Shown piece by piece: positions 1,598 through 41,502 of a stretch of 41,572 nt of DNA. How positions within the stretch are numbered: the first letter of the stretch is position 1; each line of letters begins with the position of its first letter. The position numbers and the translations under genes were made by a program. The stretch covers positions 1-41,572 of IMG/VR virus record IMGVR_UViG_3300020045_006174; one strand, written 5' to 3'. Origin of the DNA: a virus. Lineage: Duplodnaviria > Caudoviricetes. Under the pieces are notes generated by a model. That model was not told where the DNA came from. It did no database searches and saw only the letters and a list, made by a program, of their open reading frames with translations.

Positions 1598-1881
1598 GCA
1601 CCGCAATATGCACATGCCGAACCGCGCCGCAAGCGGACTGCCCATTTCACGGAGGCGGAGCGGGAGAAACACCACTCTTACTTCCGAACGACACAAAAAT
1701 CCTGTTCTGCAACACAATGGACGCGATGCTGACGCATGGCTCTACGTGCAAGGAATGCTGGAGATATATCCGCTGGGGCGATGGCGACCTGTGCTCTGAT
1801 GGTAAAGCGACCATCGCAAGAGAACTTTGCTATGCGGACACGAATCTTGATTTGCCACCAAACCAGAAACCCCACCCATGA
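1594..1881 (+). CDS. Cys-rich hypothetical protein
   Basis: ATGA overlap with neighbours at both ends; CTC, CPFH and CKEC motifs. Confidence 0.65.
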   Translation: MSTAICTCRTAPQADCPFHGGGAGETPLLLPNDTKILFCNTMDAMLTHGSTCKECWRYIRWGDGDLCSDGKATIARELCYADTNLDLPPNQKPHP

Positions 1882-2258
1882 GCGAACAGACATCCTCTCC
1901 GAAGCGTATCGACCATCTGATAAAAGGAATGCGCTACTGGCTAGATCGCGCCAAAATAAAGCTGGACGCTGGATGCGAACGTCACGCCGCAATTGCCATG
2001 GTGAAAGCGCAAGAAAACCTATCCATGCTCGAATCAGAAATCTTGAGAGGAAACGTCCCGGATGCGGTCGTCGAATCGGAAGTGTGCGAATGCTGCGATG
2101 GAGCGGGCAGCATCTCATACAACCCAAACCTCAATCCGAATGCGTTCCCAGCGACGACATCCGCTGTATGTATGCACTGCAACGGCACAGGCATCGTAGA
2201 GCAAGCGAAGCCGCAGCCGAACGCCAAGCTCAAAGATCGGATCGGAGAAAATCTATGA
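1878..2258 (+). CDS. Hypothetical protein with DnaJ-type CxxCxGxG zinc finger
   Basis: CECCDGAG and CMHCNGTG; ATGA coupling; C-terminus encoded by an attC arm. Confidence 0.7.
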   Translation: MSEQTSSPKRIDHLIKGMRYWLDRAKIKLDAGCERHAAIAMVKAQENLSMLESEILRGNVPDAVVESEVCECCDGAGSISYNPNLNPNAFPATTSAVCMHCNGTGIVEQAKPQPNAKLKDRIGENL

Positions 2259-2408
2259 CGACACAAGACCCAATCGAATCAAAGCCGTGCCCAAACTGCT
2301 GGGCGTCTAACGTGGCGACAAATGCGAGATGCGGACTGTGTGGCTTCCAATTTCCAACGCAACGAACCGGAGAGGCGAAATCCGATTCTATGCAGCGCGT
2401 GGTTGGCT
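2216..2408 (-). other. attC-like integron recombination site 1
   Basis: Minus strand GCCAAC-CACGC-GCT[G]CATAG[A]ATCGGA...TCCGATCTTTGAGC-TTGGC-GTTCGGC: R'', L'', L', R' boxes with two extrahelical bases. Confidence 0.75.
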
Positions 2409-2631
2409 GCTATGTGGCCGTCAATCAAGACCTCGTAGATGAAATCGTGCGGCGAGCCAAAGAATCGGAATACGGGCTTGGCGACCCCGTAAAAGACCCC
2501 GACATCACAATATACGAACCGTGGGACATAGACATGCTGGCTGTGTGCTTGGTGTCATCATGGACGGAAAAGTATGACCTCGTAAGCGTGTTCGCTGCGG
2601 CAATGCGCGTGATGAAAGAAAAGGCAGCCAA
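2222..2631 (-). mobile_element. Integron-type gene cassette 1 (about 410 bp)
   Basis: R'' arm gttggctgc (2402-2410) is the exact reverse complement of gcagccaac (2624-2632) at the other cassette end. Confidence 0.65.
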
Positions 2632-2641
2632 CAAAGATTAA
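2255..2641 (+). CDS. Zn-ribbon hypothetical protein (cassette 1 cargo)
   Basis: ATG at 2255 in an ATGA overlap; CPNC...CGLCG; reads through the attC arm. Confidence 0.7.
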   Translation: MTTQDPIESKPCPNCWASNVATNARCGLCGFQFPTQRTGEAKSDSMQRVVGCYVAVNQDLVDEIVRRAKESEYGLGDPVKDPDITIYEPWDIDMLAVCLVSSWTEKYDLVSVFAAAMRVMKEKAANKD

Positions 2642-2670
2642 GCGAACCACCCCATGCAAATCCCGAATAT

Positions 2671-3075
2671 ATGAGAAGCAAAAAGGTAACCCGATACTAC
2701 TGCGACCATTGCTCCAAAGGAATGTTCAAAGCTCCTTCAATGCAGGCCCATGAATCCATCTGCTTCTCAAATCCGAAAAGGTTGTGCTATTTGTGCGAGA
2801 ACGCCGGAAGCGCTCCAGATCAAATAAAGAAGCTCCTCAATCTTCACACTTTGGACCGCCATGAAGATTTCAGCGGAAACGAAATGGATACAATGTCTGC
2901 GACTCCTGAGTTTTTGAAGGCGCTAAGAAATGAGGTGAACAACTGTCCGGCCTGTATTTTGGCCGTTCTTAAGCAAGGGAAAATTTTTGCTTTCGGTGAA
3001 TTCGACTACAAGAAAGAAAAGGCAGAATACGCAGCGGAAAAACACCGCGAGTTGATGTCTGGAATTGGCCTCTAG
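2671..3075 (+). CDS. Cys-rich phage hypothetical protein
   Basis: RYYCDHC, HESIC, CYLC and CPAC motifs. Confidence 0.7.
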   Translation: MRSKKVTRYYCDHCSKGMFKAPSMQAHESICFSNPKRLCYLCENAGSAPDQIKKLLNLHTLDRHEDFSGNEMDTMSATPEFLKALRNEVNNCPACILAVLKQGKIFAFGEFDYKKEKAEYAAEKHRELMSGIGL

Positions 3076-3084
3076 ATTAACCCC

Positions 3085-4509
3085 ATGCAACCCACTTCCA
3101 TCTCGGAGTTGGCCGACGCATCGAACCCGCGTCTTAGGCCAAAAGCTAAACCGTCTCTGGACCGCCTGCCTCGCAGCGCCGAGGCGCACCGCGCTGATCG
3201 CCTGCCGCCGCATTCTGCCGAAGCAGAGCAGGGCGTCCTGGGCTGTGTTTTGCTGTCCCCAAATGAGTGCATCGGACAGTGTGCGGAGAAGTTGACGATG
3301 GGTGGCGAGGCGTTTTACGACCTGCGACACCAGACGATTTACAACGCGGTGATGACAATGACGGATGTTCTGGAGCCAATTGACATCATCACGCTGCAAC
3401 AGCGGTTGAAGGATGGCGGCTTGTTGGATCAGATTGGCGGGATTGCCTATCTGAACGCCTTGCAGGACGCCGTTCCTTCAGCGGCAAATCTGAGCTACTA
3501 CCTCGACATCGTGGCGGAAAAATACACGATGCGGCGCTTGGTGCAAACCTGCACGGATTTGGTAGGACGCGTTTACGAACACGAGGGCGATGTGGATGTG
3601 TTGCTTGATGAAGCAGAGCGCGACATTTTCAGCATCCAGAAATCGAAGTTCATGCCGACGCTCGACGGCAAGGCGGTTGGAAAAAGAATGCTTCAGGATT
3701 TGGAGCGTCGCTTTAATCTCAACGGCGCACTGTCGGGATTATCCACCGGCATACCAGCACTAGATGCCATGACCGAGGGATTGCAGCCGGGAGAGCAGTT
3801 CATTATCGGGGCCAGGCCGTCACAGGGAAAAACCGCGCTCGGTCTAAACTTTTTTGCCCACTCAGTTTTTAACGGCATCCCAGCCATGTTCATCAGTCTT
3901 GAAATGTCGGTCGAGGCCATCATGCGCCGGCTGTGTGCGATGCGCCTCAAGATCGGAATGAAGACCATGCGGCGGGGATCATACTCCGAGCAAGACTTCG
4001 GAAGTTTTGCCTCCATGAGCACTCAGCTATCGAAGCTTCCAATCCGCATTGTTGACGGAGTGGACGGCATGAACATCCGGGAGGTCTGTTCGCGCATCAA
4101 CAAGGAGGTCATCCGCAGCGGCATCAAACTGGTTGTCGTAGACTACCTGCAAAAAATCAGGTCGTGCGAGCGTCAGGAGAAAAAGACCTACGAGGTGGCT
4201 GAGGTCAGCGGAAGGTTGAAGGCGGTCGCGCACGACAACAACATTGCGATAGTCACGCTAGCCCAGCTTAATCGCGAGAACGTCAAGGGCGGTGACAAGA
4301 ACGGGTCAAGGGCGCCGAGATTAAGCGACCTCGCCGACTCAGGCCAGATCGAGCGCGATGCCGACACGGTGGCTTTGATTCACCGCAAGGACAACGAGAC
4401 GAATTTGATAATCGCAAAACAGCGCGACGGGGAGCTTGGACTAATCAAGCTGTACTTCGAGGGACGATATGGATTATTCCATCAGCTTGATGAAGTAGAA
4501 GAACCGTGA
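3085..4509 (+). CDS. dnaB: DnaB-family replicative helicase
   Basis: LPPHSAEAEQGVLG N-terminal domain, Walker A GARPSQGKT, SLEMS, VVVDYLQ, LAQLNR, LSDLADSGQIERDAD, IIAKQRDG. Confidence 0.97.
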   Translation: MQPTSISELADASNPRLRPKAKPSLDRLPRSAEAHRADRLPPHSAEAEQGVLGCVLLSPNECIGQCAEKLTMGGEAFYDLRHQTIYNAVMTMTDVLEPIDIITLQQRLKDGGLLDQIGGIAYLNALQDAVPSAANLSYYLDIVAEKYTMRRLVQTCTDLVGRVYEHEGDVDVLLDEAERDIFSIQKSKFMPTLDGKAVGKRMLQDLERRFNLNGALSGLSTGIPALDAMTEGLQPGEQFIIGARPSQGKTALGLNFFAHSVFNGIPAMFISLEMSVEAIMRRLCAMRLKIGMKTMRRGSYSEQDFGSFASMSTQLSKLPIRIVDGVDGMNIREVCSRINKEVIRSGIKLVVVDYLQKIRSCERQEKKTYEVAEVSGRLKAVAHDNNIAIVTLAQLNRENVKGGDKNGSRAPRLSDLADSGQIERDADTVALIHRKDNETNLIIAKQRDGELGLIKLYFEGRYGLFHQLDEVEEP

Positions 4510-4664
4510 TTCCGCTTCTTATACCTAACCTTCCGCTCCGTCCCGTTGATGGTCTTTCCTGACTCCAGGTTTCGCAGCGCGTATTTGTGATACGACGGGG
4601 CGGGCGCCTTGATGCCGACGGTGTACTTGCGGATGGTTTCCGGGGATGGTAGATAGGGGTTCAT
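4482..4664 (-). CDS. Small basic hypothetical protein
   Basis: ATG at 4664 overlaps the stop of the upstream gene (ATGA); 3' end overlaps the dnaB end. Confidence 0.5.
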   Translation of the reverse strand: MNPYLPSPETIRKYTVGIKAPAPSYHKYALRNLESGKTINGTERKVRYKKRNHGSSTSSS

Positions 4665-5242
4665 ATTACAAATGTTCCTTTTTCGCAGCCAACCCAATCG
4701 GTGAAATCGAATCCAACCGCGTTTTTGTAGTTGTCTTTTATCGAGTGATTGGCGAGAGCATATCCCATGACATGGCTTGTCATTTGCCTTGCAAGTCTGG
4801 CGCACTGCTTCACGTCCAGCTTTTTTGAATCCTTGTTTACCGGCGCCTGCTTTATCACCGTCGCGTTATAGATGGAATCGCACGCCATCAATCCTGCCCA
4901 ATCAGGAATTTCTTGCTCCAACTTTTCCGCCAGACATTTTTCCATTAGGTAATAAAACTGGCGGGGCTGCTGGCTGATATAAAATTTTCGATTAACGCGA
5001 TGACTCTTTTTAGCATCGGCCCTGAAGTCAGAAACGCTGCGCTTTATCTCCACCTCGATCATGTATCTGCCTGAAGTAATCCCCAACACGTCAGGCTGGC
5101 CCATCATGTACGAAGGCGTTCTTTCCTCCAATACTACAAGGCATTTCTTTTCTAGCCAAAGCCAGCGCATTGCCGCAAGTTCAAGCATGGATCGCGTCCG
5201 AGTTAACGAGTCAGTTTCCAACCAGGAATTTATTCCGCGCAT
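4661..5242 (-). CDS. PD-(D/E)XK nuclease, MmcB-like
   Basis: QPDVLG...IEVEIKRSVSDFRAD motif and IPDWAGL; true start may be ATG 5188. Confidence 0.75.
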   Translation of the reverse strand: MRGINSWLETDSLTRTRSMLELAAMRWLWLEKKCLVVLEERTPSYMMGQPDVLGITSGRYMIEVEIKRSVSDFRADAKKSHRVNRKFYISQQPRQFYYLMEKCLAEKLEQEIPDWAGLMACDSIYNATVIKQAPVNKDSKKLDVKQCARLARQMTSHVMGYALANHSIKDNYKNAVGFDFTDWVGCEKGTFVI

Positions 5243-5286
5243 CCGGGAGTTGGAGTCCCAAGGTGCGCTTTATTTCATCATCAAAG

Positions 5287-5595
5287 TCAGGGCTCACAAC
5301 GCTGGCTATGAGATTCAGTGCGATGTGCCGACGCCAGAGCTTCTGCCTCCTCCAGCAACCTGAATCGCTTCGCATCGAATCCGTATTCCTGTCCGCTCGC
5401 CTCGCTGATGGGATTATTCAACCCGACGAGATAGACCACCGTGGCCGGCTGACGCTTACCGCCGTGATGGGCGACGCCTCCGGTTGAATCCCGGATGACG
5501 TATTGACAGCCCTCAATCGGGATGGCCTTGTAGAGTGCCAGCACCCACGTTGGGAATTTGCCGTCGATGCAGATTACTTTGTCGCTGGGGGTCAT
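5287..5595 (-). CDS. Hypothetical protein
   Basis: ATGA-coupled start at 5595; KVICID...FDAKRFRLL pattern typical of small phage SH3-like proteins. Confidence 0.65.
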   Translation of the reverse strand: MTPSDKVICIDGKFPTWVLALYKAIPIEGCQYVIRDSTGGVAHHGGKRQPATVVYLVGLNNPISEASGQEYGFDAKRFRLLEEAEALASAHRTESHSQRCEP

Positions 5596-5819
5596 TTTAT
5601 TTCGACTCTTAAATGCTCCTGCTTTATTTCGATTGCCAAAATCAGTTGCCTGTTTTGATTTCTTAGCCTGACCAATTCTGTGCTCATTGCCTCGCGTTCG
5701 GCCCGCTCGCAAAGCGGGCAACTCGACCAAGAACACTCGGCGCGCATCTTTTGGTCGGCGTCATCTGGAGCTTCAATTCCAAAGCGGCATTTGTGAATCT
5801 GGCATTCAAGGATGGTCAT
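5592..5819 (-). CDS. Hypothetical protein (Cys motifs plus coiled coil)
   Basis: Coupled overlaps on both sides. Confidence 0.6.
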   Translation of the reverse strand: MTILECQIHKCRFGIEAPDDADQKMRAECSWSSCPLCERAEREAMSTELVRLRNQNRQLILAIEIKQEHLRVEIK

Positions 5820-6061
5820 AAATCGTTTGGGTCATCATCGTCATCCATCGAGTCCCAAAACTCAGACTCTTTAACCCCATCGCAAATACCGCCAGCCAGC
5901 ACGCTGTCACACGGACGATTGCGCTCGCAGCAGTGGCAATACTGAACCATGCTTTCGACAAATTTTTGATACTCCTCGGATTGATATGGGTCTTCATCAA
6001 CCGGAACTGGTGGCTTCATCTCCGCCACTTCGGCAAAGATTTGTTCGACGGGATCGCTCAT
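5816..6061 (-). CDS. Acidic Cys-containing hypothetical protein
   Basis: CHCC...PCD.VLAGGICD; operon coupling. Confidence 0.6.
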   Translation of the reverse strand: MSDPVEQIFAEVAEMKPPVPVDEDPYQSEEYQKFVESMVQYCHCCERNRPCDSVLAGGICDGVKESEFWDSMDDDDDPNDL

Positions 6062-6064
6062 AAT

Positions 6065-6466
6065 TCAGCAAATCATTATGGCTTCCCGAATCATAATCAT
6101 CTCCGGGCAGCGATTAAATGACTCGACGTAAATTCTCACCTCGCCATTGTGTGCCATGCTCCTGCAATTATGCCCATCCAGTTCAAGGTATTCTTTGCAA
6201 CCCTCCTCCGTGAAGGCAATCATAACAGTTTCCCATCGGTCCACGTATCCGAACTCGTCCCACTCGCCGCCTTCTGGCTCGCCTTTGAAATCCTTGTCGT
6301 CGTCGTAGACGGTTTCTTGGTTTGCGGAGTCGTGCCAGCACTTGTTGGCCGCGTATGCCGAGTCGTAGCCAACATCACGGCGTTTGATTTGCACACAGAA
6401 CATTGGATTCTGCGTGCAGCGATTGTCTTGCTTGTTAAGCCTCTCTCCGATTGTTCTTAGGTTCAT
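6065..6466 (-). CDS. Ead/Ea22-like phage protein
   Basis: QDNRCTQNPMFCVQ, W.TV..AFTEEGCKEYL..DGHN and RIYVES.NRC.EM motifs, recalled from Ead/Ea22-like proteins. Confidence 0.6.
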   Translation of the reverse strand: MNLRTIGERLNKQDNRCTQNPMFCVQIKRRDVGYDSAYAANKCWHDSANQETVYDDDKDFKGEPEGGEWDEFGYVDRWETVMIAFTEEGCKEYLELDGHNCRSMAHNGEVRIYVESFNRCPEMIMIREAIMIC

Positions 6467-6473
6467 AATTCTT

Positions 6474-6797
6474 TCATCGCTTTCTAGATTTATTCAATTC
6501 ACAAAAACAGTCACCGTCCGGGTCGTTGTAATTGGCAAGCAGTCCGTCCATGCTGAAACAAAAGTGCCAGCCATCAGCCATTTCTTTTTCGCTAAGAAGG
6601 ACGCCATCGTCTTCCATTAACTGATTGAACCTAACAGCAGTCATGTGACCATGTTCGCCAGCCGGAGGACTGCATCGTGTCGCATCCAGAAACTCCCGCA
6701 ACTTCCCCTCAAAGTATTTCTCGTTGTTAACAATGGAGTCGCGTTGTAGTTCGGGAACGGCGGCGGCGAGTTCGGAGGCGAGGAGGTGGATGGTCAT
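6474..6797 (-). CDS. Hypothetical protein
   Basis: ORF in the minus-strand operon; GWHFC..MDGL motif. Confidence 0.6.
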   Translation of the reverse strand: MTIHLLASELAAAVPELQRDSIVNNEKYFEGKLREFLDATRCSPPAGEHGHMTAVRFNQLMEDDGVLLSEKEMADGWHFCFSMDGLLANYNDPDGDCFCELNKSRKR

Positions 6798-6825
6798 GTA
6801 AAAAGGGTGGCAATGTTAAAAAGGA

Positions 6826-7125
6826 CTAGATTGGTACATCCGATTCCGCGCCCGACCCGTCTCCAACTACCGGAGCAGGAGCCTTCGGAGCGTCTTGCTT
6901 TCTCGGCATGAACTTCGCATTGCCTATAATTTCGCCGCGCTTCCCAGCCTCGCGCTCCTCCTTGCTGACTCCCTGCACAACCATGTAGTCATTCCCAAAC
7001 TGACTATCCTTGCTGGCGAGCAAAACGCAGTCGAGATAAGTGCCCTTGGCGCCCTTGAAAAGCCGCGCCTTGTCGATTTTAGTCACGTCGATCTTGACGA
7101 TTATTGTCTGTGGTTTTTCGTTCAT
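6826..7125 (-). CDS. Putative ssDNA-binding protein
   Basis: KIDVTKIDK...GKGTYLD...VQGVSKEERE...IIGNAK fold with an acidic DVPI tail as in SSB C-termini. Confidence 0.55.
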   Translation of the reverse strand: MNEKPQTIIVKIDVTKIDKARLFKGAKGTYLDCVLLASKDSQFGNDYMVVQGVSKEEREAGKRGEIIGNAKFMPRKQDAPKAPAPVVGDGSGAESDVPI

Positions 7126-7128
7126 AAA

Positions 7129-7587
7129 TTATTTAATCTGCTGCTTCATTCCATACTCAAGGATCAGCAAGGCATCTGACACTTGCAGCGTTACAGTGCA
7201 ATTCGGAAACAACTGCTGTGCCTTGTTCTTGAGTTTTCCTTTCCAGATGGTGTCCGTCGCGCACTCGCTGCGTTTTCCCAGACTGAAAAACTTCTGCCAC
7301 TTCTGCGGGGTCAGCATTTCCACCCGGAATCCCAGCGCACAAAGAACGCCCTCGATCCTGCCGGCGCTCCGGTGCAGCTTGGTCATTGAGTTGCCCAGCT
7401 TCTTTCCTCCGATGAAGCTTGGCACATCCTCCATGAAGCAAATCCAGTCTGGAGAATTTGCCTTGAGCCCAACCATGATGTCTTTGAAGTCGCCAATGGT
7501 TTCCGGCAGCTTGGCGCACGATACAATGCCGTCGTCGTAGGTTGCAAATCCGCCTGATGCGCCGGGGTCGATAGCAATCAGATTCAT
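7129..7587 (-). CDS. RuvC-like Holliday junction resolvase
   Basis: LIAIDPGASGG, FMEDV, TPQKWQK, SDALLI. Confidence 0.85.
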   Translation of the reverse strand: MNLIAIDPGASGGFATYDDGIVSCAKLPETIGDFKDIMVGLKANSPDWICFMEDVPSFIGGKKLGNSMTKLHRSAGRIEGVLCALGFRVEMLTPQKWQKFFSLGKRSECATDTIWKGKLKNKAQQLFPNCTVTLQVSDALLILEYGMKQQIK

Positions 7588-7597
7588 TGTTTCTCCT

Positions 7598-7864
7598 TCA
7601 TTGTGGAAGTTCTTTAAGGTTGGCGGCGGCGGTGAGGATGTTATCCCGCGTTGTTCTTTTGGCGTAATCGCGGTCATGAGATTCACAAAAATGCTGCGGA
7701 ACTTGCTGTGCCGCCCACTCAGCACCAGCTTTGAAAGCATTCAAATCCTTATTCTCCACCTGATCAACCAGCCAAAGAATGTCGTTTGCTGATATTTCAA
7801 ATCCGTCCATTGATGGTGAATCAGTGCAGGCTTTGCGAAGCTCGGATAGTTGTTCTTTTGTCAT
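7598..7864 (-). CDS. Hypothetical protein
   Basis: Operon position; AFKAGAEWA motif common in phage early proteins. Confidence 0.6.
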   Translation of the reverse strand: MTKEQLSELRKACTDSPSMDGFEISANDILWLVDQVENKDLNAFKAGAEWAAQQVPQHFCESHDRDYAKRTTRDNILTAAANLKELPQ

Positions 7865-8013
7865 TCCTCAATCTCCTTCTCCGCGCAATCCTCGCAAAGA
7901 TATTTATTTCCAATCCTGACCACCGCCTGAGCAGATTCGCACTTGTCGCACAAAATCCACTCCTGCTCTTCGTGAGCGGTTGGGGGTTGAAAGCGGTCCG
8001 TGGACGGGCTCAT
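7861..8013 (-). CDS. Small zinc-finger protein
   Basis: CDKC...LCEDC; ATGA coupling at 8010-8013. Confidence 0.6.
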   Translation of the reverse strand: MSPSTDRFQPPTAHEEQEWILCDKCESAQAVVRIGNKYLCEDCAEKEIEE

Positions 8014-8237
8014 ATCCACCCCTCCAAAAACTCTCCTTCGGCATCGGTATGAAAAACCGGAGGCTTCTCGCCAGTATCGCATTTACCCTCGATCCTGATT
8101 CGATGCAACCCGTTCTCAAACTTGACGACCTCGCCGACACAACCAGACCATAGGTGCGGTCGGTTAATAAAAACAGTCTCTCCAACCGAAAACTTCTGCG
8201 GCTGGATCGACTTTGGTTCTTTTGACTTTCTTGCCAT
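8010..8237 (-). CDS. KOW/SH3-like small protein
   Basis: FSVGETVFI...WSGCVGEV; first gene after the divergent promoter. Confidence 0.6.
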   Translation of the reverse strand: MARKSKEPKSIQPQKFSVGETVFINRPHLWSGCVGEVVKFENGLHRIRIEGKCDTGEKPPVFHTDAEGEFLEGWI

Positions 8238-8257
8238 CGTCCGCACAGCAAAACATA

Positions 8258-8311
8258 TTGAATAATTCTTGTCAATACTCATTGACAGAAATCGCAAAAT
8301 GATTTTAGATT
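8258..8311. promoter_or_regulatory. Divergent promoter pair with palindromic operator-like site
   Basis: Back-to-back -35 boxes TGTCAA (8270-8275) and TTGACA (8282-8287); TAGATT at 8306; TATTGA-N10-TCAATA palindrome. Confidence 0.65.
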
Positions 8312-8318
8312 CGGGGGC

Positions 8319-8486
8319 ATGACGAAAGAAGATTTGATTGCCGAACTGGAGAAATTGCCAGCGGGACAACAGGTGGAGTTTCGCGTGACGAAGAAAAACT
8401 CTGAAGAATTCACGAACCGAATCCGCGCTGAATTTGACCGCATCGTTTTCTCGAATCCGGCCAGGGTTGAGTTGTTGGAGAAGTGA
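8319..8486 (+). CDS. 55-aa hypothetical protein (not in ORF track)
   Basis: MTKEDLIAELEKLPAGQQVEF...VELLEK; directly after the promoter; stop overlaps the attC R' core. Confidence 0.65.
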   Translation: MTKEDLIAELEKLPAGQQVEFRVTKKNSEEFTNRIRAEFDRIVFSNPARVELLEK

Positions 8487-8604
8487 ACGTCAAGATCATC
8501 GACAGCCGCCGGGAGAGGCTGCCGCGCGCAATGAAACCTCCCAATAAACCAGACGCTCCGACCGCAGTGCTTGGCGGCTGTTCGCTGCATCGCCTTGGTT
8601 AGAG
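8482..8604 (-). other. attC-like integron recombination site 2
   Basis: Minus strand TCTAAC-CAAGGC-GAT[G]CAGCG[A]ACAGCCGCC...GGCGGCTGTCGATGATC-TTGAC-GTTCAC; same extrahelical G and A as site 1. Confidence 0.8.
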
Positions 8605-8623
8605 CGCAGAACCAAAACACAAA

Positions 8624-8983
8624 ATGATAGACCTAGACCCGACAGCAACAAAATACCAAGAGATGTGCAACAAAGACCTCTTGGAGAAACTGCGGAAAGT
8701 CGAAGAAGCCGCCGCGCAAATGGAACTGCCCCGCTACAAGTGCCACAAAGAAGTGTGGGCGCTCAAAATAGCGGAAGTGCGAGACACCACAGAACCCGGA
8801 AACGAAACCGACGGTAGCCGACTGCTCATCTTCGAGGAAAAGCCGTATGCGCCGATTCGGGTGGATAATACCTACGTCCACAAGCACAAGCCGGAGGCTG
8901 GTGGCTACTACGTGGTGTATGCCGATGGATACAAATCTTTCTCCCCGGCGAAAGCGTTCGAGGATGGATACACGAAAGTCTGA
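8624..8983 (+). CDS. Phage protein with GY.V.Y.DGY.S(F/W)SP..FE.GY domain (cassette 2 cargo)
   Basis: PRYKCHKEVWALKI and GGYYVVYADGYKSFSPAKAFEDGY motifs. Confidence 0.8.
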   Translation: MIDLDPTATKYQEMCNKDLLEKLRKVEEAAAQMELPRYKCHKEVWALKIAEVRDTTEPGNETDGSRLLIFEEKPYAPIRVDNTYVHKHKPEAGGYYVVYADGYKSFSPAKAFEDGYTKV

Positions 8984-8990
8984 AACCAAC

Positions 8991-9019
8991 GAGCGTAGAG
9001 CGGACGCCGCTCTGCGCTC
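8991..9019 (+). terminator. GC-rich hairpin after the cassette gene (no U-tract)
   Basis: gagcgtagagcgg-acg-ccgctctgcgctc: 13-bp stem with one G-U pair. Confidence 0.4.
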
Positions 9020-9054
9020 TAACAGTTAATTCAACCAACCGAGTTGGCATTATC

Positions 9055-9339
9055 ATGAAACGCCCCATCACCCGCGAATCTCTGCTCAAGCAGATCGACC
9101 GCGCATACAAAAAGATTGCCGCTATGGAGGTGCTGGCCCAGGAACAACTGGACATCGAGGAGCTTTATCGAGGTTGTGATGTAGTCAAGCGCAATGAACA
9201 CGCTGAATCCGCCAACAAGCTTTTAGCCAAGATCAAATACCAGAAGGAGCGCCGATTGAAAAAGCTTGGTGAGAAGCTGGCCGAGGTGGATACGATTCCG
9301 CTTAGGCTTCAACCTGAATCAAATGATGTAATTCCATGA
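9055..9339 (+). CDS. Coiled-coil hypothetical protein
   Basis: Helical, charged ORF coupled to the next gene. Confidence 0.6.
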   Translation: MKRPITRESLLKQIDRAYKKIAAMEVLAQEQLDIEELYRGCDVVKRNEHAESANKLLAKIKYQKERRLKKLGEKLAEVDTIPLRLQPESNDVIP

Positions 9340-9707
9340 TGTACACAAAAAACATGAATGACGGAAAACACGTATTTGTGTTTGGATCAAACTCAGGCGG
9401 ATACCACGGCGCTGGGGCGGCAAGGCAAGCCTATCGCTATTGGGGAGCAAAATGGGGTATTGGAATTGGTCGCACCGGGAACTCTTACGCAATTCCAACC
9501 AAGAGCGCATCGCTGAGAGTTAGGCCGCTGCATGACATAGAATCTAGCGTTGCTGGATTCATCGGCTACGCCAAAGATAATCCAAGCCTGACCTTTCTCG
9601 TGACCGCAGTAGGTTGCGGGTTGGCTGGATACTCACCTAAAGACATTGCGCCAATGTTTGAGGGCGCTCCAAGTAATTGCGTTCTTCCCGACGAGTTCAA
9701 ATACTAG
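9336..9707 (+). CDS. A1S_2505-like macrodomain-fold protein
   Basis: VFVFGSN..G.HGAGAA, SYAIPTK, FLVTAVGCGLAGY, IAPMF. Confidence 0.8.
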   Translation: MMYTKNMNDGKHVFVFGSNSGGYHGAGAARQAYRYWGAKWGIGIGRTGNSYAIPTKSASLRVRPLHDIESSVAGFIGYAKDNPSLTFLVTAVGCGLAGYSPKDIAPMFEGAPSNCVLPDEFKY

Positions 9708-10154: not shown

Positions 10155-10237
10155 TGAGCGCGGCAGGATTTGAACCTGCATGAGTGAGCGTAATCCCCCT
10201 CTTAGGTATCAGCGTCTTTACATTCCGCCACGCGCTC
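10155..10237 (-). tRNA. tRNA-like element with degenerate anticodon arm (Leu-like / pseudo-tRNA)
   Basis: Acceptor GAGCGCG/CGCGCTC-A, D stem GCG/CGC, T arm GCAGG-TTCAAAT-CCTGC; anticodon stem does not pair. Confidence 0.65.
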
Positions 10238-31202: not shown

Positions 31203-32807
31203 GTGAGCGCGTATGTCCAACTCGCCAAGCACGGCGACCTTCTTTCCCTGCTGCCGTGCCTGCATCATGAATTCCTAACCACCGGCATCAAGCCAAGCCT
31301 GATTGTTGGTCGCGATTACCGGGCCATTCCTGACGCAGTGGACTATCTTAACGTCGTCCAATTCGACGGCGACCCCCAAGACCTAGACGGCGCAATCCGC
31401 TTTGCCAAGAATCGGTTTGAAGGCGTAAAAATCCCTCAGCTTCACGGCGAAGGATTCCAGTTTCAACATCGGCATCCCTCGTTCCAATACGATCAATGGG
31501 ACCGCGCCGGCTGGCTCGACAAGTGGGACACGCTGCCGCTGATACTACCGCGCCGAAAGTCCAACCTGGAAATACCGATTGAGCCTTTCATTGTTTACGG
31601 CGACCACAGCCAGTCATCTCCATTTCTGCACAAGGAAGACCTGGCTGAAGTCCTGAAGCAAAACTTTCCGCAGCACTCCATCGTGCGACTAAGTTCGGTG
31701 CTGGCCCCTCACCCGCTCGAACTCTTGGCGCTGATAGATGCTGCGGATTTAATCGTAACGGTGGACTCCATGCCGCTGCACTTGAGCAAGGCGGTCAACA
31801 AGCCTGCGATAGCCCTTGTGGGGGATAACCTCTCCCGATGGCACGGCAGCGCGTGGAGTAGCAGGTTTGCGATACACTGCCGCTATGGCGATTATCAGCG
31901 ACGCAAAGACGAGCTTGTGAAGGCGGCAAAGGCTGCGCTTAACAACAGCCTCCTGAAGTCCACTCCGATTGCTGCCGACATGGGAGGCTACAATCCATCC
32001 ATCATCCGCTTCGGAAACAAGACGCTGACTACATTCCGCTATCACCCGGCCCGAAGCTGGAAGACGCGGCTCGCCATCACCGACGGACACAAGGCGAGCG
32101 ACATCGTATTTCCTGCCAGCATGGACGAGTTCAGCAAGGAAGACGCCAGACTCTTTACCCACATGGGGAAATTGATGATGACCTACGTTGTCGCCAAGGC
32201 GCTTCCCGTTGGACACCAATTCCGCTGCGTCGTCGGATATGGGATGCTCAACTTCCGGGAAGGACGCTGGAGGATCGACGAGCATATCCAGCCGGCATTC
32301 CAAAACAACGACTGGTCAGGAACGGTTAAGAACTGGGTTCCGTTTGAACACGACGGAAAGATTCACTTCATCTACGGAAACCAGTTCGGAGAGCAAATCG
32401 TCATCCGAGTTGAGGGCGATAAGGTAACCGGAGAATACAAGACGCCTGAAGCTAAATGGGAGCACGGCGAGATAAGGGGTGGGGCTATCGTGCCGCACGA
32501 AGGCAATTTGCTGCGCTTCTTCCACAGCCGCACCGGAGAGAATCACTGGACGCCGGGAGCAACCTTCCAATATCACGTCGGCGCTCTATTGATGGAGTCA
32601 AATCCGCCATTCAAGGTTATCAAGGTGGGAAGCAGTCCGATTCTGAGCGGTGATGAAAGGTATATGCCGGGCTGCTTTCACTGGAAAAACAATGTCGCCA
32701 TCGCGTACGGGGTTGTGAAAGATGACGATGGGTTTATTCTGAGTGTCGGAAGAAATGACTCTAGTTGCGAGGCGGTTAAATTGAAGTTTGGAGATTTGAA
32801 TTTATGA
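31203..32807 (+). CDS. GT9 (heptosyltransferase-like) glycosyltransferase fused to a GH130/GH43-like beta-propeller
   Basis: HGDLLSLLP and ADLIVTVDSMPLHLSKAVNKPAIAL (GT9); YNPSI, EDARLF, KNWVPF, IRGG (five-bladed propeller). Confidence 0.78.
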   Translation: MSAYVQLAKHGDLLSLLPCLHHEFLTTGIKPSLIVGRDYRAIPDAVDYLNVVQFDGDPQDLDGAIRFAKNRFEGVKIPQLHGEGFQFQHRHPSFQYDQWDRAGWLDKWDTLPLILPRRKSNLEIPIEPFIVYGDHSQSSPFLHKEDLAEVLKQNFPQHSIVRLSSVLAPHPLELLALIDAADLIVTVDSMPLHLSKAVNKPAIALVGDNLSRWHGSAWSSRFAIHCRYGDYQRRKDELVKAAKAALNNSLLKSTPIAADMGGYNPSIIRFGNKTLTTFRYHPARSWKTRLAITDGHKASDIVFPASMDEFSKEDARLFTHMGKLMMTYVVAKALPVGHQFRCVVGYGMLNFREGRWRIDEHIQPAFQNNDWSGTVKNWVPFEHDGKIHFIYGNQFGEQIVIRVEGDKVTGEYKTPEAKWEHGEIRGGAIVPHEGNLLRFFHSRTGENHWTPGATFQYHVGALLMESNPPFKVIKVGSSPILSGDERYMPGCFHWKNNVAIAYGVVKDDDGFILSVGRNDSSCEAVKLKFGDLNL

Positions 32808-33004
32808 AAAAGATTATAGATTGGTTTCGCAGCATATCTTTCATCTTGTTATTCGTTCTGATATGCGCTTTCGCTCCACTGCCTTGGGTGATTAAATCAT
32901 ACTTTGAGGCGCAGTCGTACAACCGGCTCACCGGGGCAAAGGCAACAACATGGGACGCCATGTGGGTAGAACTGCGCGTCCAAGGATCACCAAAACAACC
33001 ATGA
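32804..33004 (+). CDS. Small membrane protein
   Basis: One hydrophobic helix, then EAQSYNRLTG...TWDAMWVELRV. Confidence 0.65.
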   Translation: MKKIIDWFRSISFILLFVLICAFAPLPWVIKSYFEAQSYNRLTGAKATTWDAMWVELRVQGSPKQP

Positions 33005-33588
33005 AAGAACTCATTGAAGTAAACCCGAAGCTCGATGGATGGTGCGAACTTCCCAAAGCAATCACCTTGTTCAACCTCGTGCTGGCAAGCCGGCCATTGG
33101 TAATCGTAGAGGTCGGCGTATTCGGTGGACGCTCTGCCATTCCGATGATGATGGCGTGCAAGCTTAACGGACGCGGCATTGTTCATTGCGTCGATCCGTG
33201 GAGCCCGGAGGCGTCAAAGGAGGGTCAGATTACCGACGTTGACATTAAGTGGTGGGGCGGCCTGAATCACGAAATGGTGTATCAGAAATTCGTTAGCTAC
33301 GTTGACCGGCTCGCGCTCAAGGAGCAATGCGAGATTCACCGCATGAGGTCTAGCGACTTTAATCCGCCAGCGAGAATAGATGTAGCCCACATCGACGGGA
33401 ATCACGGGCCCGATGCACTGGAGGACACCAAGAAATACGCCTCTCTTGTTGACTCAGGAGGATATGTCATTCTTGACGACTGCAACTGGCATGGCGGCTA
33501 CGTAACAAAGTCGGCAGAGTGGCTGAAAGAGAATGGATTTCTGGAACTGCACCCGCTCGGCACTGGCGCCCTATTCAGAAAGAGTTGA
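33001..33588 (+). CDS. Class I SAM methyltransferase (Methyltransf_24-like)
   Basis: GWC, VEVGVFGGRS, VDPW, HIDGNH, GGYVILDD. Confidence 0.88.
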   Translation: MKELIEVNPKLDGWCELPKAITLFNLVLASRPLVIVEVGVFGGRSAIPMMMACKLNGRGIVHCVDPWSPEASKEGQITDVDIKWWGGLNHEMVYQKFVSYVDRLALKEQCEIHRMRSSDFNPPARIDVAHIDGNHGPDALEDTKKYASLVDSGGYVILDDCNWHGGYVTKSAEWLKENGFLELHPLGTGALFRKS

Positions 33589-33603
33589 CAAGATTCTTTC
33601 AAT

Positions 33604-33906
33604 ATGGTTGAGTGGGCTGAAATGAAAGAACCAACCGCATCCGAAATAAGGCTGCGCACAAGTCGAATGGAGATTGCTAGCGATTTGATGTCTCAGTGTC
33701 TTGAGACTCAGGCGCGCCGGGTGGCGAAGCACTATCTTTCCCATATCCTCATTTCACAAGAGCTTTTGAAGGCGGCAGAATACATGAAGCAAGACCCATA
33801 TTCCGAAGTGGCTCGCGTTCTTACTCAAAGACTGCTTCAGGAAATAAAAGACAATCACGCATACGATTTCGGGATTGAACTCGAATGGAGAAAAAGAGAA
33901 TGGTAA
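33604..33906 (+). CDS. Hypothetical protein
   Basis: ORF after TTGACA at 33585; start may be 33622. Confidence 0.55.
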   Translation: MVEWAEMKEPTASEIRLRTSRMEIASDLMSQCLETQARRVAKHYLSHILISQELLKAAEYMKQDPYSEVARVLTQRLLQEIKDNHAYDFGIELEWRKREW

Positions 33907-35024
33907 GACCCCTCACAGTCAGCATGACCCCCGCCTTTCGCTACGGCGGAGAAAACGACTGGCTGCTTCGCGCTCAGTTGCGCTGTCTGTCCGAACAGGA
34001 GTTCAAAGACTTCGACGTTCTGATTGTCGATCCTCACTTTAACAAGCGCCGGAGCTACATGCCGGAGCTTCAACAGCGGTATAACCTGAATGTGGTCCAT
34101 GTGCCGTATCGCCCGAATCAGCGAGTCGCGTCACGCCTTGATTGCGCTGTCTTTAATGCGCCCTATCTGTTCAGCGAGTCTCCGCGAATTGTCCGCTACT
34201 CGTGCTGGCGATTTGTCAGGCCCAACTTCACCAAGCTTTGCGTTGAATCCAATACCAATGTGGATTTCCGATTTCACTCCATCTCGCCAAGAAATTTCGT
34301 CGGACAGGATTCAAACAACGAAACCAATCATCCCACCGACATCTGGGATGGAAAGAGTGACGTGGTGCAGTGGAACAACGTGCCCACTCACGCCGGAATG
34401 GGCGGGGCAACATGGGGAGACGATGCCGACGTTGACGCATTTGAAACCTTGATGCCCCTGAACGCTTATGGCAACTATTGTGTGTCTCGCAAAGACTGGC
34501 TTTCAATCAACGGAACAGACGAGGTTTTTACACGAGTTTGTCACTATGAGGACATGGACTTCACCCAACGGGCGTATAACGCGGGGATTCGATGCGAACG
34601 CAAAGCCCACGTTTTATACCGACTCAGCCACAACTACGGCAACCATAGCGGCAGGGCCAACGAACCAACAGACCATCCGCTTACAAAAAACTGTCCTGAA
34701 TGCGAGCGGGCTTGTCAGGTTCTTGAGCCGAATCGGTTTGATTTGAAGCGCCGGGAAGCAGCCGGAGAGATTGAGATTTTTCCCGAGCACAAGGTATGGG
34801 TCTGCAAGAAGTGTCTCTTGGCTGGAGCAGTTTATCACGCCGGCTGTCACGAGCATACTGAATGGATAAAGTCGTCAGGAAGAACGCAGGCGACAATCAT
34901 TCCGAAGCATAAGATGGGTCGCAACCTTCGCACACTCGCCTCTGACATGGACGGCAAAAGCCTAACGGAGAAGGTGAGGATTTTTGAGGATAGCTATAAC
35001 AACGAGAGGTATTATCGCGCATGA
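33900..35024 (+). CDS. GT2/GT-A glycosyltransferase with Cys-rich tail
   Basis: L..QEFKDFDVLIVD, GNY.VSRKDWLSINGTDE.F...YEDMDF..RA. Confidence 0.8.
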   Translation: MVRPLTVSMTPAFRYGGENDWLLRAQLRCLSEQEFKDFDVLIVDPHFNKRRSYMPELQQRYNLNVVHVPYRPNQRVASRLDCAVFNAPYLFSESPRIVRYSCWRFVRPNFTKLCVESNTNVDFRFHSISPRNFVGQDSNNETNHPTDIWDGKSDVVQWNNVPTHAGMGGATWGDDADVDAFETLMPLNAYGNYCVSRKDWLSINGTDEVFTRVCHYEDMDFTQRAYNAGIRCERKAHVLYRLSHNYGNHSGRANEPTDHPLTKNCPECERACQVLEPNRFDLKRREAAGEIEIFPEHKVWVCKKCLLAGAVYHAGCHEHTEWIKSSGRTQATIIPKHKMGRNLRTLASDMDGKSLTEKVRIFEDSYNNERYYRA

Positions 35025-35374
35025 ACGCCAAAACTGAACTGCCATCTACTGGCGTTGATTTCAAGTATTCCACCGTGCCACTGCCTGATGGGGTTGTTAT
35101 TGGAGGTCAATGGCCAAAAGCCATCATCTCTTGGCCTGACGGAAAGGGTCGAGGGGCCACAAAACCAGAGTGGGACCTATTTCAAGCACTTGAAAAGGCT
35201 TGTGAAGAAATTGAAGCGATCCGCGAAACGCCACCAAGCATCTTATCCGACGTGCTCCACCTCCGAACCGAAATCGACTGCCGCATCGATCATGGCGCGT
35301 CTGGGCCTGGACATCTGGAATACGTGCGGAACTGCTTGGATCAAATCATGGACGCTCACCGCTCTCCAAAATAA
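35021..35374 (+). CDS. Hypothetical protein
   Basis: ATGA-coupled ORF. Confidence 0.6.
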   Translation: MNAKTELPSTGVDFKYSTVPLPDGVVIGGQWPKAIISWPDGKGRGATKPEWDLFQALEKACEEIEAIRETPPSILSDVLHLRTEIDCRIDHGASGPGHLEYVRNCLDQIMDAHRSPK

Positions 35375-35381
35375 ATCCAGC

Positions 35382-35564
35382 ATGAAAAGATTCAAAATTC
35401 CAATGATCTTATCGCTGGCGTGCGTCATGGCAGTTCTGGCGCTTTTCTGGCTTGGAGGCTTCGACTTTGATACTCGTGGAGATAAGGCGGTTATCTGCTC
35501 GGTATTGGCAATAATTTTTGGAGGCATTGGATTTGCGCTCGGAATTCTGACTGAAGCGGATTGA
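35382..35564 (+). CDS. Two-TM small membrane protein
   Basis: Two hydrophobic helices separated by GFDFDTRG. Confidence 0.6.
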   Translation: MKRFKIPMILSLACVMAVLALFWLGGFDFDTRGDKAVICSVLAIIFGGIGFALGILTEAD

Positions 35565-35565
35565 T

Positions 35566-35748
35566 ATGATCCCACCCATCGCCCCTAAACCAAAATTCCG
35601 ATTAACCGCCCACAAGGTCACTGGCGAGCCGCCGACAGTCATGGAGTTCGACACGGTGAAAGAGGCTGATGATTTTTACTTTGAGCTAAAGCGGCGTCAC
35701 AAATATCTGACGTATGTTGGCGTTAAGATTGAAAAGATTGAACCATGA
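35566..35748 (+). CDS. Hypothetical protein
   Basis: Operon coupling; FDTVKEA motif. Confidence 0.55.
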   Translation: MIPPIAPKPKFRLTAHKVTGEPPTVMEFDTVKEADDFYFELKRRHKYLTYVGVKIEKIEP

Positions 35749-35999
35749 TTCCACTCCAAATGAAAATCGAAAAAGGCGTGATGGTAGTGAAGGGCGGTAA
35801 AGCTTGGGGAGAAACCCAATCAGACGGGCATAGCACATCGTATGGATGGGTAGATGTCGAAAGCGCACCTATCCACGACCCACACTCCTGCAAGAAACCA
35901 ACCGACGTGACATATAGCGGAAGCCACATGATACCAGAACTGTTGACAGGAGAAGTAGTGCATGTGGTAAGAACAACAACTATGCGCGTGCTTTTATGA
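35745..35999 (+). CDS. Hypothetical protein
   Basis: ATGA coupling on both sides. Confidence 0.6.
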   Translation: MIPLQMKIEKGVMVVKGGKAWGETQSDGHSTSYGWVDVESAPIHDPHSCKKPTDVTYSGSHMIPELLTGEVVHVVRTTTMRVLL

Positions 36000-36586
36000 T
36001 CCCGCCCCTCACAGACCGCGTAAGTCTGCTTGAGCTAGTCAACGAGCGATTCCCCAATGGGCTCGGAGTCGAGATAGGGGTTGCCGGGGGACACTTCACC
36101 AAGCAGATAGCCGCAACGTGGAATTTCGGCCAACTCTGCTGCGTCGATCCGTGGATTAACTTCAAGGACGGTTACGAGGACTCCTGCAACCTCGACGACA
36201 AGACCCAGGAGGAAAGATTCAACCAGTTCGCCAAAGACTTCGCTGATAATCCAAAGGTGGTGGTCATGCGCCGGATGTCTCACGAGGCTTCCAAGTCGGT
36301 CAAGCCCGCATCGGCTGACTTCATCTATCTCGACGCCAACCACAGCTTTACCGAGGTCATGCGCGATTTGCTTTGCTGGTGGCCCATACTTAAGCCGGGT
36401 GGAATCTTTGCCGGCCATGACTACTACGACGGCAACGGGAAAGGCCATGGCGTAAAGCTGGCAGTGGATATGTTCGCCTCAGATCGAGGGTTGAAGGTTC
36501 ATCAGACCACTCAGGAGTTCTGCCGTCCAGAAGGGGTTTATGGGGCTGGATGGGAGGGATACTCTTTCGTCTTAGAGAAGCCATGA
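35996..36586 (+). CDS. Class I SAM methyltransferase (Methyltransf_24-like), second copy
   Basis: GVEIGVAGG, VDPW, DFIYLDANH, LKPGGIFAGHDY, GVK.AVD.F. Confidence 0.9.
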   Translation: MIPPLTDRVSLLELVNERFPNGLGVEIGVAGGHFTKQIAATWNFGQLCCVDPWINFKDGYEDSCNLDDKTQEERFNQFAKDFADNPKVVVMRRMSHEASKSVKPASADFIYLDANHSFTEVMRDLLCWWPILKPGGIFAGHDYYDGNGKGHGVKLAVDMFASDRGLKVHQTTQEFCRPEGVYGAGWEGYSFVLEKP

Positions 36587-40396: not shown

Positions 40397-40651
40397 ATGG
40401 CTTGTCCTACTCTGGCAGAGCTTGAAATAGCGATGTGCGAGAGCGGAATCGGTCGGGAGGAAAACCTGATCACGCTTTTGCAGGTAACAGCGCAGGCTGC
40501 TCTTAATTGGGCTCAGTCGGCCAATCCAGGAGCGGACTATTCCCTGACCGCAATCGAGACGCGGGCCTGTGAGAGCCGAATTGGTTGGGAAACCGATCAA
40601 TCGGTTCTACTGCGGGTAATCGCGCAGAATTTGTGCAATCTGACATCGTGA
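40397..40651 (+). CDS. Cys-repeat virion protein (two copies of the MAC unit)
   Basis: CESGIG...LLQVTAQ and CESRIG...LLRVIAQNLC. Confidence 0.7.
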   Translation: MACPTLAELEIAMCESGIGREENLITLLQVTAQAALNWAQSANPGADYSLTAIETRACESRIGWETDQSVLLRVIAQNLCNLTS

Positions 40652-40655
40652 ATCT

Positions 40656-40898
40656 ATGGCTTGCTCGCTTTCAACCATCCAATCACAGGCATGTTTGAGC
40701 GGGATAGGGAGGATTCAGAACCCTATCCAGCTTTACCAGCTTATCGCCCAGCTTACCTGCGAGGCGAGTCAGGCGTCTCCCGTTTTATTTGGCGAAGGCG
40801 CTCCAGTGGCAGCCCCGGCCACAACAAACGCCGTTTATACCAACACGCTTACCGGCGACAAATACACCTACTACGGCGGCGCGTGGCACGCTGATTAA
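40656..40898 (+). CDS. MAC-unit virion/head-fibre protein, short
   Basis: MACSLSTIQSQACLSGIG...; C-terminal G.GAP...YTNTLTG.KY.Y.GGAW fibre-like repeat. Confidence 0.7.
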   Translation: MACSLSTIQSQACLSGIGRIQNPIQLYQLIAQLTCEASQASPVLFGEGAPVAAPATTNAVYTNTLTGDKYTYYGGAWHAD

Positions 40899-40902
40899 AT
40901 TT

Positions 40903-41502
40903 ATGGCCTGCGATCTACCTACAATCCAATCCCAAGCTTGCCTGTCTGGCATTGGGAGAATTCAAAATCCGATTCAACTTTACCAGTTGATGGCACAACT
41001 GACGTGCGAGGCATCGCAGGGCGGCGGGGGAGGCACATCGTGCTTCCAATGCTCTGATGGCGCCGGCGCCCCTGTTGCTGCTCCAGAGAATCCAGACCAG
41101 CCTGCGTCTTACCATGACACGACTAGCAATTTTACCTACAACTGGGATGTTCCGACGCAGCAATGGATTCCAGTTCCGAAAGTGTATCGGGCGTTATTGT
41201 CGCAGACGGGGACGGATGCGCCGGTTGCGGACGTGAAGATAAATACGCTTGGAGCAGCTGTTTGGAGCTACGAGGGGGTTGGCGATTATCGGATGACTCT
41301 TGCGGGTGCGTTTCCTGCTAGCAAGATTTATAGCTCATTTATGGGGACGGAAACATGTATTTCAAAACCTGCTGCGGACGATGTTTGGATTATTCTTAAT
41401 TACGGAAACATCGATTATATCAGTCTAAACTGCACGACTTTCGGAGTCCCGGGTGACGGTTATATCCAAAACACTGCGTTTGAAATCCTTGTTTACCCCT
41501 AA
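40903..41502 (+). CDS. MAC-unit virion/head-fibre protein, long
   Basis: N-terminal 39 aa 36/39 identical to the previous gene; C-terminal KVYRALLSQTGT.AP...NTLG...W.Y.GVG.Y...EILVY beta domain. Confidence 0.75.
   Translation: MACDLPTIQSQACLSGIGRIQNPIQLYQLMAQLTCEASQGGGGGTSCFQCSDGAGAPVAAPENPDQPASYHDTTSNFTYNWDVPTQQWIPVPKVYRALLSQTGTDAPVADVKINTLGAAVWSYEGVGDYRMTLAGAFPASKIYSSFMGTETCISKPAADDVWIILNYGNIDYISLNCTTFGVPGDGYIQNTAFEILVYP

Follow-up and report, generated by a model that had tools for sequence, protein, structure and literature searches.

Organization of the locus

The virus record IMGVR_UViG_3300020045_006174 of IMG/VR (Duplodnaviria; Caudoviricetes) was analyzed over its whole length of 41,572 bp, referred to as the window. 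The record (G000) is estimated to be 72% complete, and its gene products include a replication initiator, a DnaB helicase, a RuvC-like resolvase and HNH nucleases. The 629-aa product of the gene at 10271-12160 matches no family, and is designated as the terminase from its motifs and position. Two small genes of this phage are each preceded by an imperfect hairpin (A and B) with the anatomy of attC, the recombination site of integron cassettes. All considered, the two units are quite probably solitary cassettes of reversed polarity, inserted by an integron integrase (IntI) coming from outside the window at attI-like docking sites of a phage operon, as judged from DNA sequence. The elements in question are the following.

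2216..2408, + strand: attC-type hairpin A; the + (gene-sense) strand corresponds to the folding "bottom" strand
2222..2631, + strand: predicted cassette A, 410 bp, between two AA/C crossover points
2255..2641, + strand: open reading frame (ORF) of cargo A, up to 128 aa; the conserved part has no known family
2624..2650, + strand: far R box and attI-like half-site A; rank 98 of 1321 on an attI profile, 7 of 1321 on a wider profile
8482..8610, + strand (folding strand): attC hairpin B, Verrucomicrobiota family; covariance model score 44.9 bits, E 1.1e-9
8488..9022, + strand: predicted cassette B, 535 bp
8624..8983, + strand: cargo B, 119 aa; a widespread phage family, 69 viral loci
9011..9062, + strand: far R box (9011-9023) and attI-like docking site B; rank 1 of 1321 on the attI profile

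Anatomy of the hairpins

Both hairpins are imperfect palindromes closed by the AAC of an R' box and the GTT of an R'' box, found at 2220-2222 and 2402-2404 in hairpin A, at 8486-8488 and 8598-8600 in hairpin B. As in attC sites, central spacers are unpaired (5/5 nt in A, 5/6 nt in B), and one arm of the L box carries two extrahelical bases 6 bp apart, the distal one being T. On the + strand, these bases are T2386 and C2393 in A, T8581 and C8588 in B. As in canonical cassettes, the start of each unit is complementary to its own R'' box, exactly and over 9 bp at 2624-2632 (A) and 13 bp at 9011-9023 (B). An earlier note, made on the letters alone, had described the attC layout at 2216-2408 and 8482-8604, the AAC/GTT cores, the spacers of 5-6 nt, the two extrahelical bases (G and A in its minus-strand reading), both complements and units of 410 and 535 bp delimited by AA/C crossover points. 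All of this stands.

The L'' extrahelical base is "usually" G in attC sites (Nivina 2016, PMC5027507). It is C in both hairpins of the window. Since C is also found in 2 of the 7 integrase-adjacent loci whose site was recognized without motif search, this residue is a family trait.

A scan of the window for the attC layout ranks the hairpins first and second, with scores of 16 and 14 out of 17. In 30 Markov shuffles, a score of 14 was reached by 0.03 sites per window, and never exceeded. Far complements, located 60-700 bp away, measure at least 9 bp at 11 of the 1269 GTT positions of the window, and at least 13 bp at 3 of the 1269, counts which likely include the observed pairs from both strands. 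A motif derived from the 3' arm of site B identified 54 viral loci, and at least 143 loci in the 4 of 64 parts of the genome set scanned. The latter reside mostly in Verrucomicrobiota, among the 80 titles listed. In the 36 of 64 metagenome parts scanned, the matches listed include a single contig, the one carrying locus L070.

Forty bacterial attC sites, drawn from 100 full sites, were aligned to build a covariance model. In the alignment, 97.7% of the cells are paired, and changes on both sides occur in 4 of 17 pairs. Beyond site B, the window contains no further significant match to the model, and no Rfam family was found at either site. With profiles of the arms, made from the same 40 sites, the highest score in the window is that of B (37.1), followed by that of A (23.4), the next being 11.7. 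In 100 shuffles, the score of site A was reached by 0.01 sites per window, and never together with equal pairing. The arms of site A depart from the family consensus, yet 12 of the 13 positions tested pair. Both hairpins have the anatomy of attC sites, and belong to the attC family of Verrucomicrobiota integrons. Folding energy had also been considered as evidence for the hairpins. It is unremarkable (z-scores 0.78, -0.04, 0.45 and 1.16, none significant), and this line was dropped.

Polarity of the cassettes

The orientation of the sites was calibrated on L202, a complete Verrucomicrobiota integron whose IntI scores 462 bits against a cut-off of 265. The cassette genes of L202 lie on the strand opposite to the arm motif, and the strand carrying the motif therefore corresponds to the folding bottom strand of Nivina 2016 (PMC5027507). 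The window differs, in that the motif lies on the gene-sense strand and each hairpin precedes its gene. The canonical order, a top-strand gene followed by its attC, is replaced by genes lying on the bottom strand, 3' of the hairpin. The claim of the earlier note that the cargo is antiparallel is upheld by this calibration. A different assignment, in which the + strand is the top strand and the downstream attC sites are truncated, was abandoned once polarity had been calibrated on bacterial sites and L202.

When polarity is assigned from the longest ORF, the bacterial sites with a bounded cassette (71 of 166) split into 49 canonical, 5 reversed and 17 undecided. By the same measure, which is crude, 13 of the 38 viral motif sites are reversed, 14 canonical and 11 undecided. 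Several of the canonical viral sites are bacterial-type arrays (L091, L121-L123). One provirus record (G001:C1:773-6207, L121-L125) opens with a canonical bacterial-type array featuring eight strong attC matches. This array lacks an integrase, and may be either a host array located beside the prophage, or a captured one.

Putative docking sites, and relatives

The far boxes, which the earlier note had correctly placed as complements, extend into attI-like half-sites that it had missed. A small attI profile was built from 14 sites adjoining intI genes, 3 of which chosen by eye, and all the 1321 AAC positions of the window were ranked. Half-site B comes first and half-site A 98th; when 11 array-terminal sites chosen by eye are added, B and A rank 2 and 7. 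The true attC arms of the window rank 461 and 1170 on the attI profile. A partner arm is absent within 260 bp of half-site A, and the AAC of half-site B is similarly devoid of one. These data support the notion that the far boxes are parts of attI-like half-sites, predicted to work as acceptors, rather than chance targets. Docking site B continues into the initiation codon of the following gene.

When the stretch of half-site B was used as a query, five viral matches were obtained. Four are attributable to chance, the fifth resides in a distant phage (G255, 67% complete), whose terminase is 32-40% identical to that of the window. With the first 13 kb of the window, this phage shares only the 9019-9062 stretch (44 bp, 93% identity, E 1e-11) and one 23-bp match (E 0.04). 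Identity starts at the R box, and the docking site is preceded by a different 184-bp cassette, which has its own R complement, 13 bp long, and an arm of attC type. Genes downstream differ as well, and the docking site itself therefore appears to travel.

Closer relatives are represented by four viral records, with terminases 79-83% identical. In the three which cover the region, the orthologs of the genes starting at 8319 and 9055 abut, and hairpin, cargo and half-site are missing. The whole 8487-9054 insert, docking site included, is lacking in these phages. The 1598-3084 interval, which holds cassette A, is an insert as well, because DnaB directly follows the replication initiator in two complete relatives. 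The check on empty sites suggested by the earlier note has thus a mixed outcome, since three relatives lack the insert and the distant phage hosts another cassette at the same docking site, but no AA/C join was found. Among viral contigs, searches with the 9055 gene, the 2671 gene and cargo A found no relatives, and region 8300-9400 has no match in GenBank phages.

One complete relative (G003) carries a reversed array at C1:15375-17350 (L282), downstream of an exonuclease-like gene. The array includes six matches to the covariance model and a terminal half-site, and seven hairpins can be recognized by eye. Short genes, also read by eye, lie between the hairpins on the bottom strand, and start codons are found inside several loops. 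Other units, which are decayed, occupy the same locus in G004. The corresponding region is absent from the window record, which lacks some 16 kb of the phage genome.

Two sequences deserve mention as separate observations. A weak match to the covariance model (1683-1710; 10.1 bits, E 0.88) resembles a collapsed attC; it sits in the gene at 1594-1881, and in the 1598-3084 insert. The product of a small gene at 5816-6061 is 78% identical over 45 residues to that of a gene of the relative L072, which is inverted there and adjoins the 9055 ortholog.

Genes inside and around the cassettes

The neighborhood of the two cassettes includes the following features.

1878..2258, + strand: upstream gene, 126 aa, weak DnaJ-type zinc-finger match
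8282..8311, + strand: sigma-70-like promoter match, heading the small operon which holds cassette B; a consensus match only
8319..8486, + strand: flanking gene, 55 aa; the R' box of hairpin B and the stop codon of this gene overlap
9055..9339, + strand: flanking gene, 94 aa; conserved in relatives without the insert

The upstream gene at 1878-2258 reads in frame 0 through the AAC at 2220 into the 5' arm of hairpin A, where it ends. That it may represent one more cassette was considered and rejected, as a complement of at least 6 bp is absent upstream. Cargo A begins within the hairpin, and its stop codon is supplied by half-site A. The in-frame starts at 2255, 2312, 2390 and 2399 all lie in the hairpin; 3' of it, the first ATG is at 2534, and a GTG is found at 2414. 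In this respect the earlier note needs correction, as cargo A is not fully contained between the boxes. Six homologs of cargo A were found. Conservation spans only the region from approximately residue 56 to the crossover Asn, and both starts and tails are unrelated. Both AAC triplets of site A encode Asn in frame, and after excision the upstream gene would consequently remain intact and acquire a short new tail. At site B, the AAC triplets are not in-frame Asn codons. The R' side of hairpin A is part of the upstream gene; there, residues 2213-2222 pair with the R'' of the cassette over six extra bases, with one bulge. Such extra pairing is not expected of a foreign target.

The predicted beta fold of cargo B resembles the phage L decoration protein (Foldseek E 1e-4, TM 0.54). 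Pfam, NCBIfam and defence labels were not found for this protein, and atlas matches score below 0.9 and are unnamed. The idea that it could be an anti-defence sponge was dropped, as no support was found. R-box brackets of at least 8 bp surround 6 of the 51 distinct homologous loci with enough flanking sequence, and attC-type hairpins of the same polarity lie near 4 of the 69 loci of the family. Since few homologs are bracketed, the family mostly consists of ordinary phage genes which are sometimes packaged. Promoter-like matches in the region are 5, against 7.7 expected, and hence show no excess over chance.

Likely host and source of the integrase

Verrucomicrobia is the sole taxon name met among relatives of the DnaB helicase (3 of 120, among the matches listed), and the host of the phage therefore likely belongs to this phylum.

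As the earlier note had stated, an integrase is missing from the window. No match to TIGR02249, the integron integrase model, was found in this record (~72% complete), nor in G003 and G004, both complete, and an integron integrase was not found in G255 (67% complete). The search of the likely host phylum, also suggested in the note, was productive, and IntI proteins above the cut-off of 265 bits are encoded by 47 of the 201 genomes sampled.

A different situation is found in G211, a complete phage whose terminase is 43-46% identical to that of the window. At C1:6881-11598 (L100, L330), eight model matches in a row are followed by a terminal half-site and, directly after, by a divergent IntI-like gene. 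The protein is 38% identical to the IntI of L202 and, from an alignment read by eye, catalytic residues and the integron-type insertion look present. A six-base core is common to the terminal site and half-site A. Among viral contigs, close relatives of the enzyme were not found. This phage likely carries an integron of reversed polarity. Given that an IntI-like gene resides in a related phage, sources of the enzyme other than the host are possible. A host IntI is the most likely source for the cassettes of the window; next in likelihood comes an IntI-like enzyme belonging to a co-infecting or an ancestral phage.

A few features of the window are unrelated to the cassettes. Residues 1-45 are a perfect inverted copy of 533-577, likely a chimera generated by assembly or amplification at the contig end. 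A tRNA gene (10155-10237, - strand, 34.6 bits) lies just 3' of the terminase gene. A cluster of glycosyltransferase- and methyltransferase-like genes at 31203-36586 is common to G003 and G004, and possibly serves surface or DNA modification. The 40651-40765 and 40898-41012 regions, 72% identical over 115 bp, correspond to short tandem genes which are part of a run of small cysteine-rich paralogs located 3' of the likely capsid gene.

Proposed mechanism and alternative explanations

By analogy with known integron chemistry, the sense (+) strand would fold into the hairpin when single-stranded, and IntI, usually supplied by the host, would cut the folded hairpin at AA/C. Excision and insertion of the 410-bp and 535-bp units would proceed through circles, with the double-stranded half-site as the acceptor. 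Since polarity is reversed, the cargo would be transcribed from phage promoters, and incoming cassettes would land beside the docking site, at the position farthest from the promoter, which is the reverse of what occurs in bacterial integrons.

Several data weigh against this reconstruction. Recombination and circles are predictions from sequence. Each hairpin has one L-box mismatch. In site B, the R box is unpaired in the minimum-energy fold, and the top strand folds more stably than the bottom strand (-20.7 vs -17.5 kcal/mol). The core of site B (115 bp) falls within the published range of 57-141 bp, that of site A (185 bp) beyond it; 6 of 100 bacterial members of the family measure 150-199 bp. 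The covariance model, which the earlier note had indicated as a check, recognizes site B but fails on site A as a whole, as it aligns to the 3' arm only (9.5 bits, E 1.3) and returns no whole-site score. The score of site B is partly circular, because the training sites had been selected by its own 3' arm. Few sites underlie the attI profile, which is weak (scores from -6.6 to 5.6 in leave-one-out), and the ranks of the half-sites therefore are support, not proof. An exact empty AA/C join is seen in no relative, the closer ones being too diverged and lacking the half-site as well. The G211 enzyme is under the IntI cut-off (231 vs 265 bits), and is the sole hit in the 46 viral records carrying the motif. 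Finally, the R-box bracket is convincing in just 2 of the 51 loci homologous to cargo B. L-box mismatches in both hairpins, and the excessive length of site A, leave room for the possibility that both sites may be partly decayed today.

Mismatches and excessive length, along with the coding sequence inside site A and the unremarkable folding energies, could also tell that the units are inert relics. According to this view, they are former array cassettes moved by ordinary phage recombination, now inactive, and kept as signals for start and stop of translation. Cassette and half-site are missing together in the relatives, as block insertion would give, and the units in G004 are decayed. This explanation is unlikely, since the R-box complements are still perfect over 9 and 13 bp, site A has retained its arm pairs (12 of 13) in spite of the divergence from the consensus, and docking site B recurs with 93% identity in a distant phage, where it is associated with another cassette.

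Quite unlikely is the hypothesis that the half-sites are the first arms of a next attC hairpin which lost its second arm by deletion, each unit being what remains of a longer array. Stumps resembling attC first arms are indeed found at the end of G004 units and of several viral loci, a start-codon motif similar to those in the hairpin loops of G003 marks the end of the stretch shared at site B, and slippage readily deletes attC sites when folded (Loot et al., bioRxiv 10.1101/2022.09.11.507474). However, the half-sites score like attI, in ranks which the true attC arms of the window do not approach (461 and 1170 of 1321), the six-base core of half-site A recurs in the G211 terminal site next to the IntI-like gene, and the half-site at B is found again in G255.

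Chance palindromes or terminators unrelated to integrons, with which the folding z-scores would agree, are highly improbable and largely refuted by the covariance model score (E 1e-9) and the shuffles of the arm profiles, besides the shuffles of the layout scan, the far complements, which are exact, and the different cassette present in G255.

Insertion of solitary reversed cassettes by an IntI acting in trans is hence the preferred explanation. A broader scenario can be tentatively sketched, which we regard as possible, and hold with some reserve. Verrucomicrobiota phages may have their own mirror-image integron economy, in which attI-like docking sites of ~40 bp would spread between unrelated phages at gene starts, and receive backwards, frame-compatible cassettes made of phage genes, swapped in trans by host or phage IntI.

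Implications

Integrons are viewed as bacterial platforms, in which strand selectivity keeps cassettes facing the cassette promoter Pc (Nivina 2016, PMC5027507). In the window, the chemistry of integrons seems to have been adapted to the operons of a phage, polarity being reversed, docking sites solitary and cargo of phage type. If active, the system would provide a site-specific route to the mosaicism of phage genomes, and a way for the phage to exploit a host enzyme. The mechanism by which new cassettes are created is reported as unknown (Cury 2016, PMC4889954). The cargo B family, which resides mostly outside cassettes and yet is packaged in a few phages, offers a concrete case to address the origin of cassettes. 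Should the mirror-image economy be true, phages would be a place where new cassettes are made. One docking site associated with two different cassettes provides ready substrates for the standard assay.

Comparison with known systems

Reversed-polarity phage cassettes were not found in the literature searched, most subscription journals being outside its reach. The feature described here resembles integron cassettes, and is neither a complete integron nor a clustered set of attC sites without integron-integrase (CALIN). The closest description is a pair of single attC sites lacking integron-integrases (SALINs) of reversed polarity, with attI-like docking sites.

Chromosomal integrons of Verrucomicrobiota (L202; Nivina 2016, PMC5027507) have the same AAC/GTT R boxes, spacers of 5-6 nt, and an L box with two unpaired bases 6 bp apart and a conserved T. 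Arm sequences are near-identical, and complementary cassette ends are shared as well. Unlike in these integrons, genes in the window lie on the folding strand, 3' of the hairpin, and intI and Pc are missing. The 5' spacer is 5 nt long, against at least 7 in most chromosomal integrons, site A is over-long and contains start codons, and cargo B comes from a phage family. Complete integrons feature an adjoining intI gene, which the window lacks, and an attI at the head of the array, to which the half-sites may be likened on the basis of the small attI profile described above (ranks 1 and 98 of 1321).

CALINs have been defined by Cury 2016 (PMC4889954), and 17 have been reported in phages, where IntI1 recombined 5 of 6 attC sites (Qi 2023, PMC9892861). 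Phage CALINs, as that of TJE1, similarly are attC sites residing in a phage devoid of integrase, and plausibly served by a host IntI. A CALIN requires at least two attC sites close together, within 3 kb in Qi 2023, and the sites of the window are 6.1 kb apart. Unlike phage CALINs, each unit of the window has an attI-like half-site and reversed polarity; the single TJE1 site recovered is canonical. The text of Qi 2023 mentions divergent sites in one phage, and describes neither genes antisense to attC nor solitary docking sites; its figures and the Dryad annotation file may bear on polarity.

Solitary cassettes, and their excision, have been described in bacteria (Loot et al., bioRxiv 10.1101/2022.09.11.507474). 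SALINs inserted at attG sites are likewise single cassettes located outside an integron, which rely on resident promoters and can be excised by IntI. Each unit of the window consists, as a SALIN, of a coding sequence and a single attC with no nearby integrase. A SALIN has no other att site in the vicinity, and each unit of the window is bounded by a half-site which is attI-like on a small and weak profile. SALINs target a minimal GWT site of bacterial chromosomes and keep canonical polarity, whereas the target in the window is a conserved attI-like sequence common to phages.

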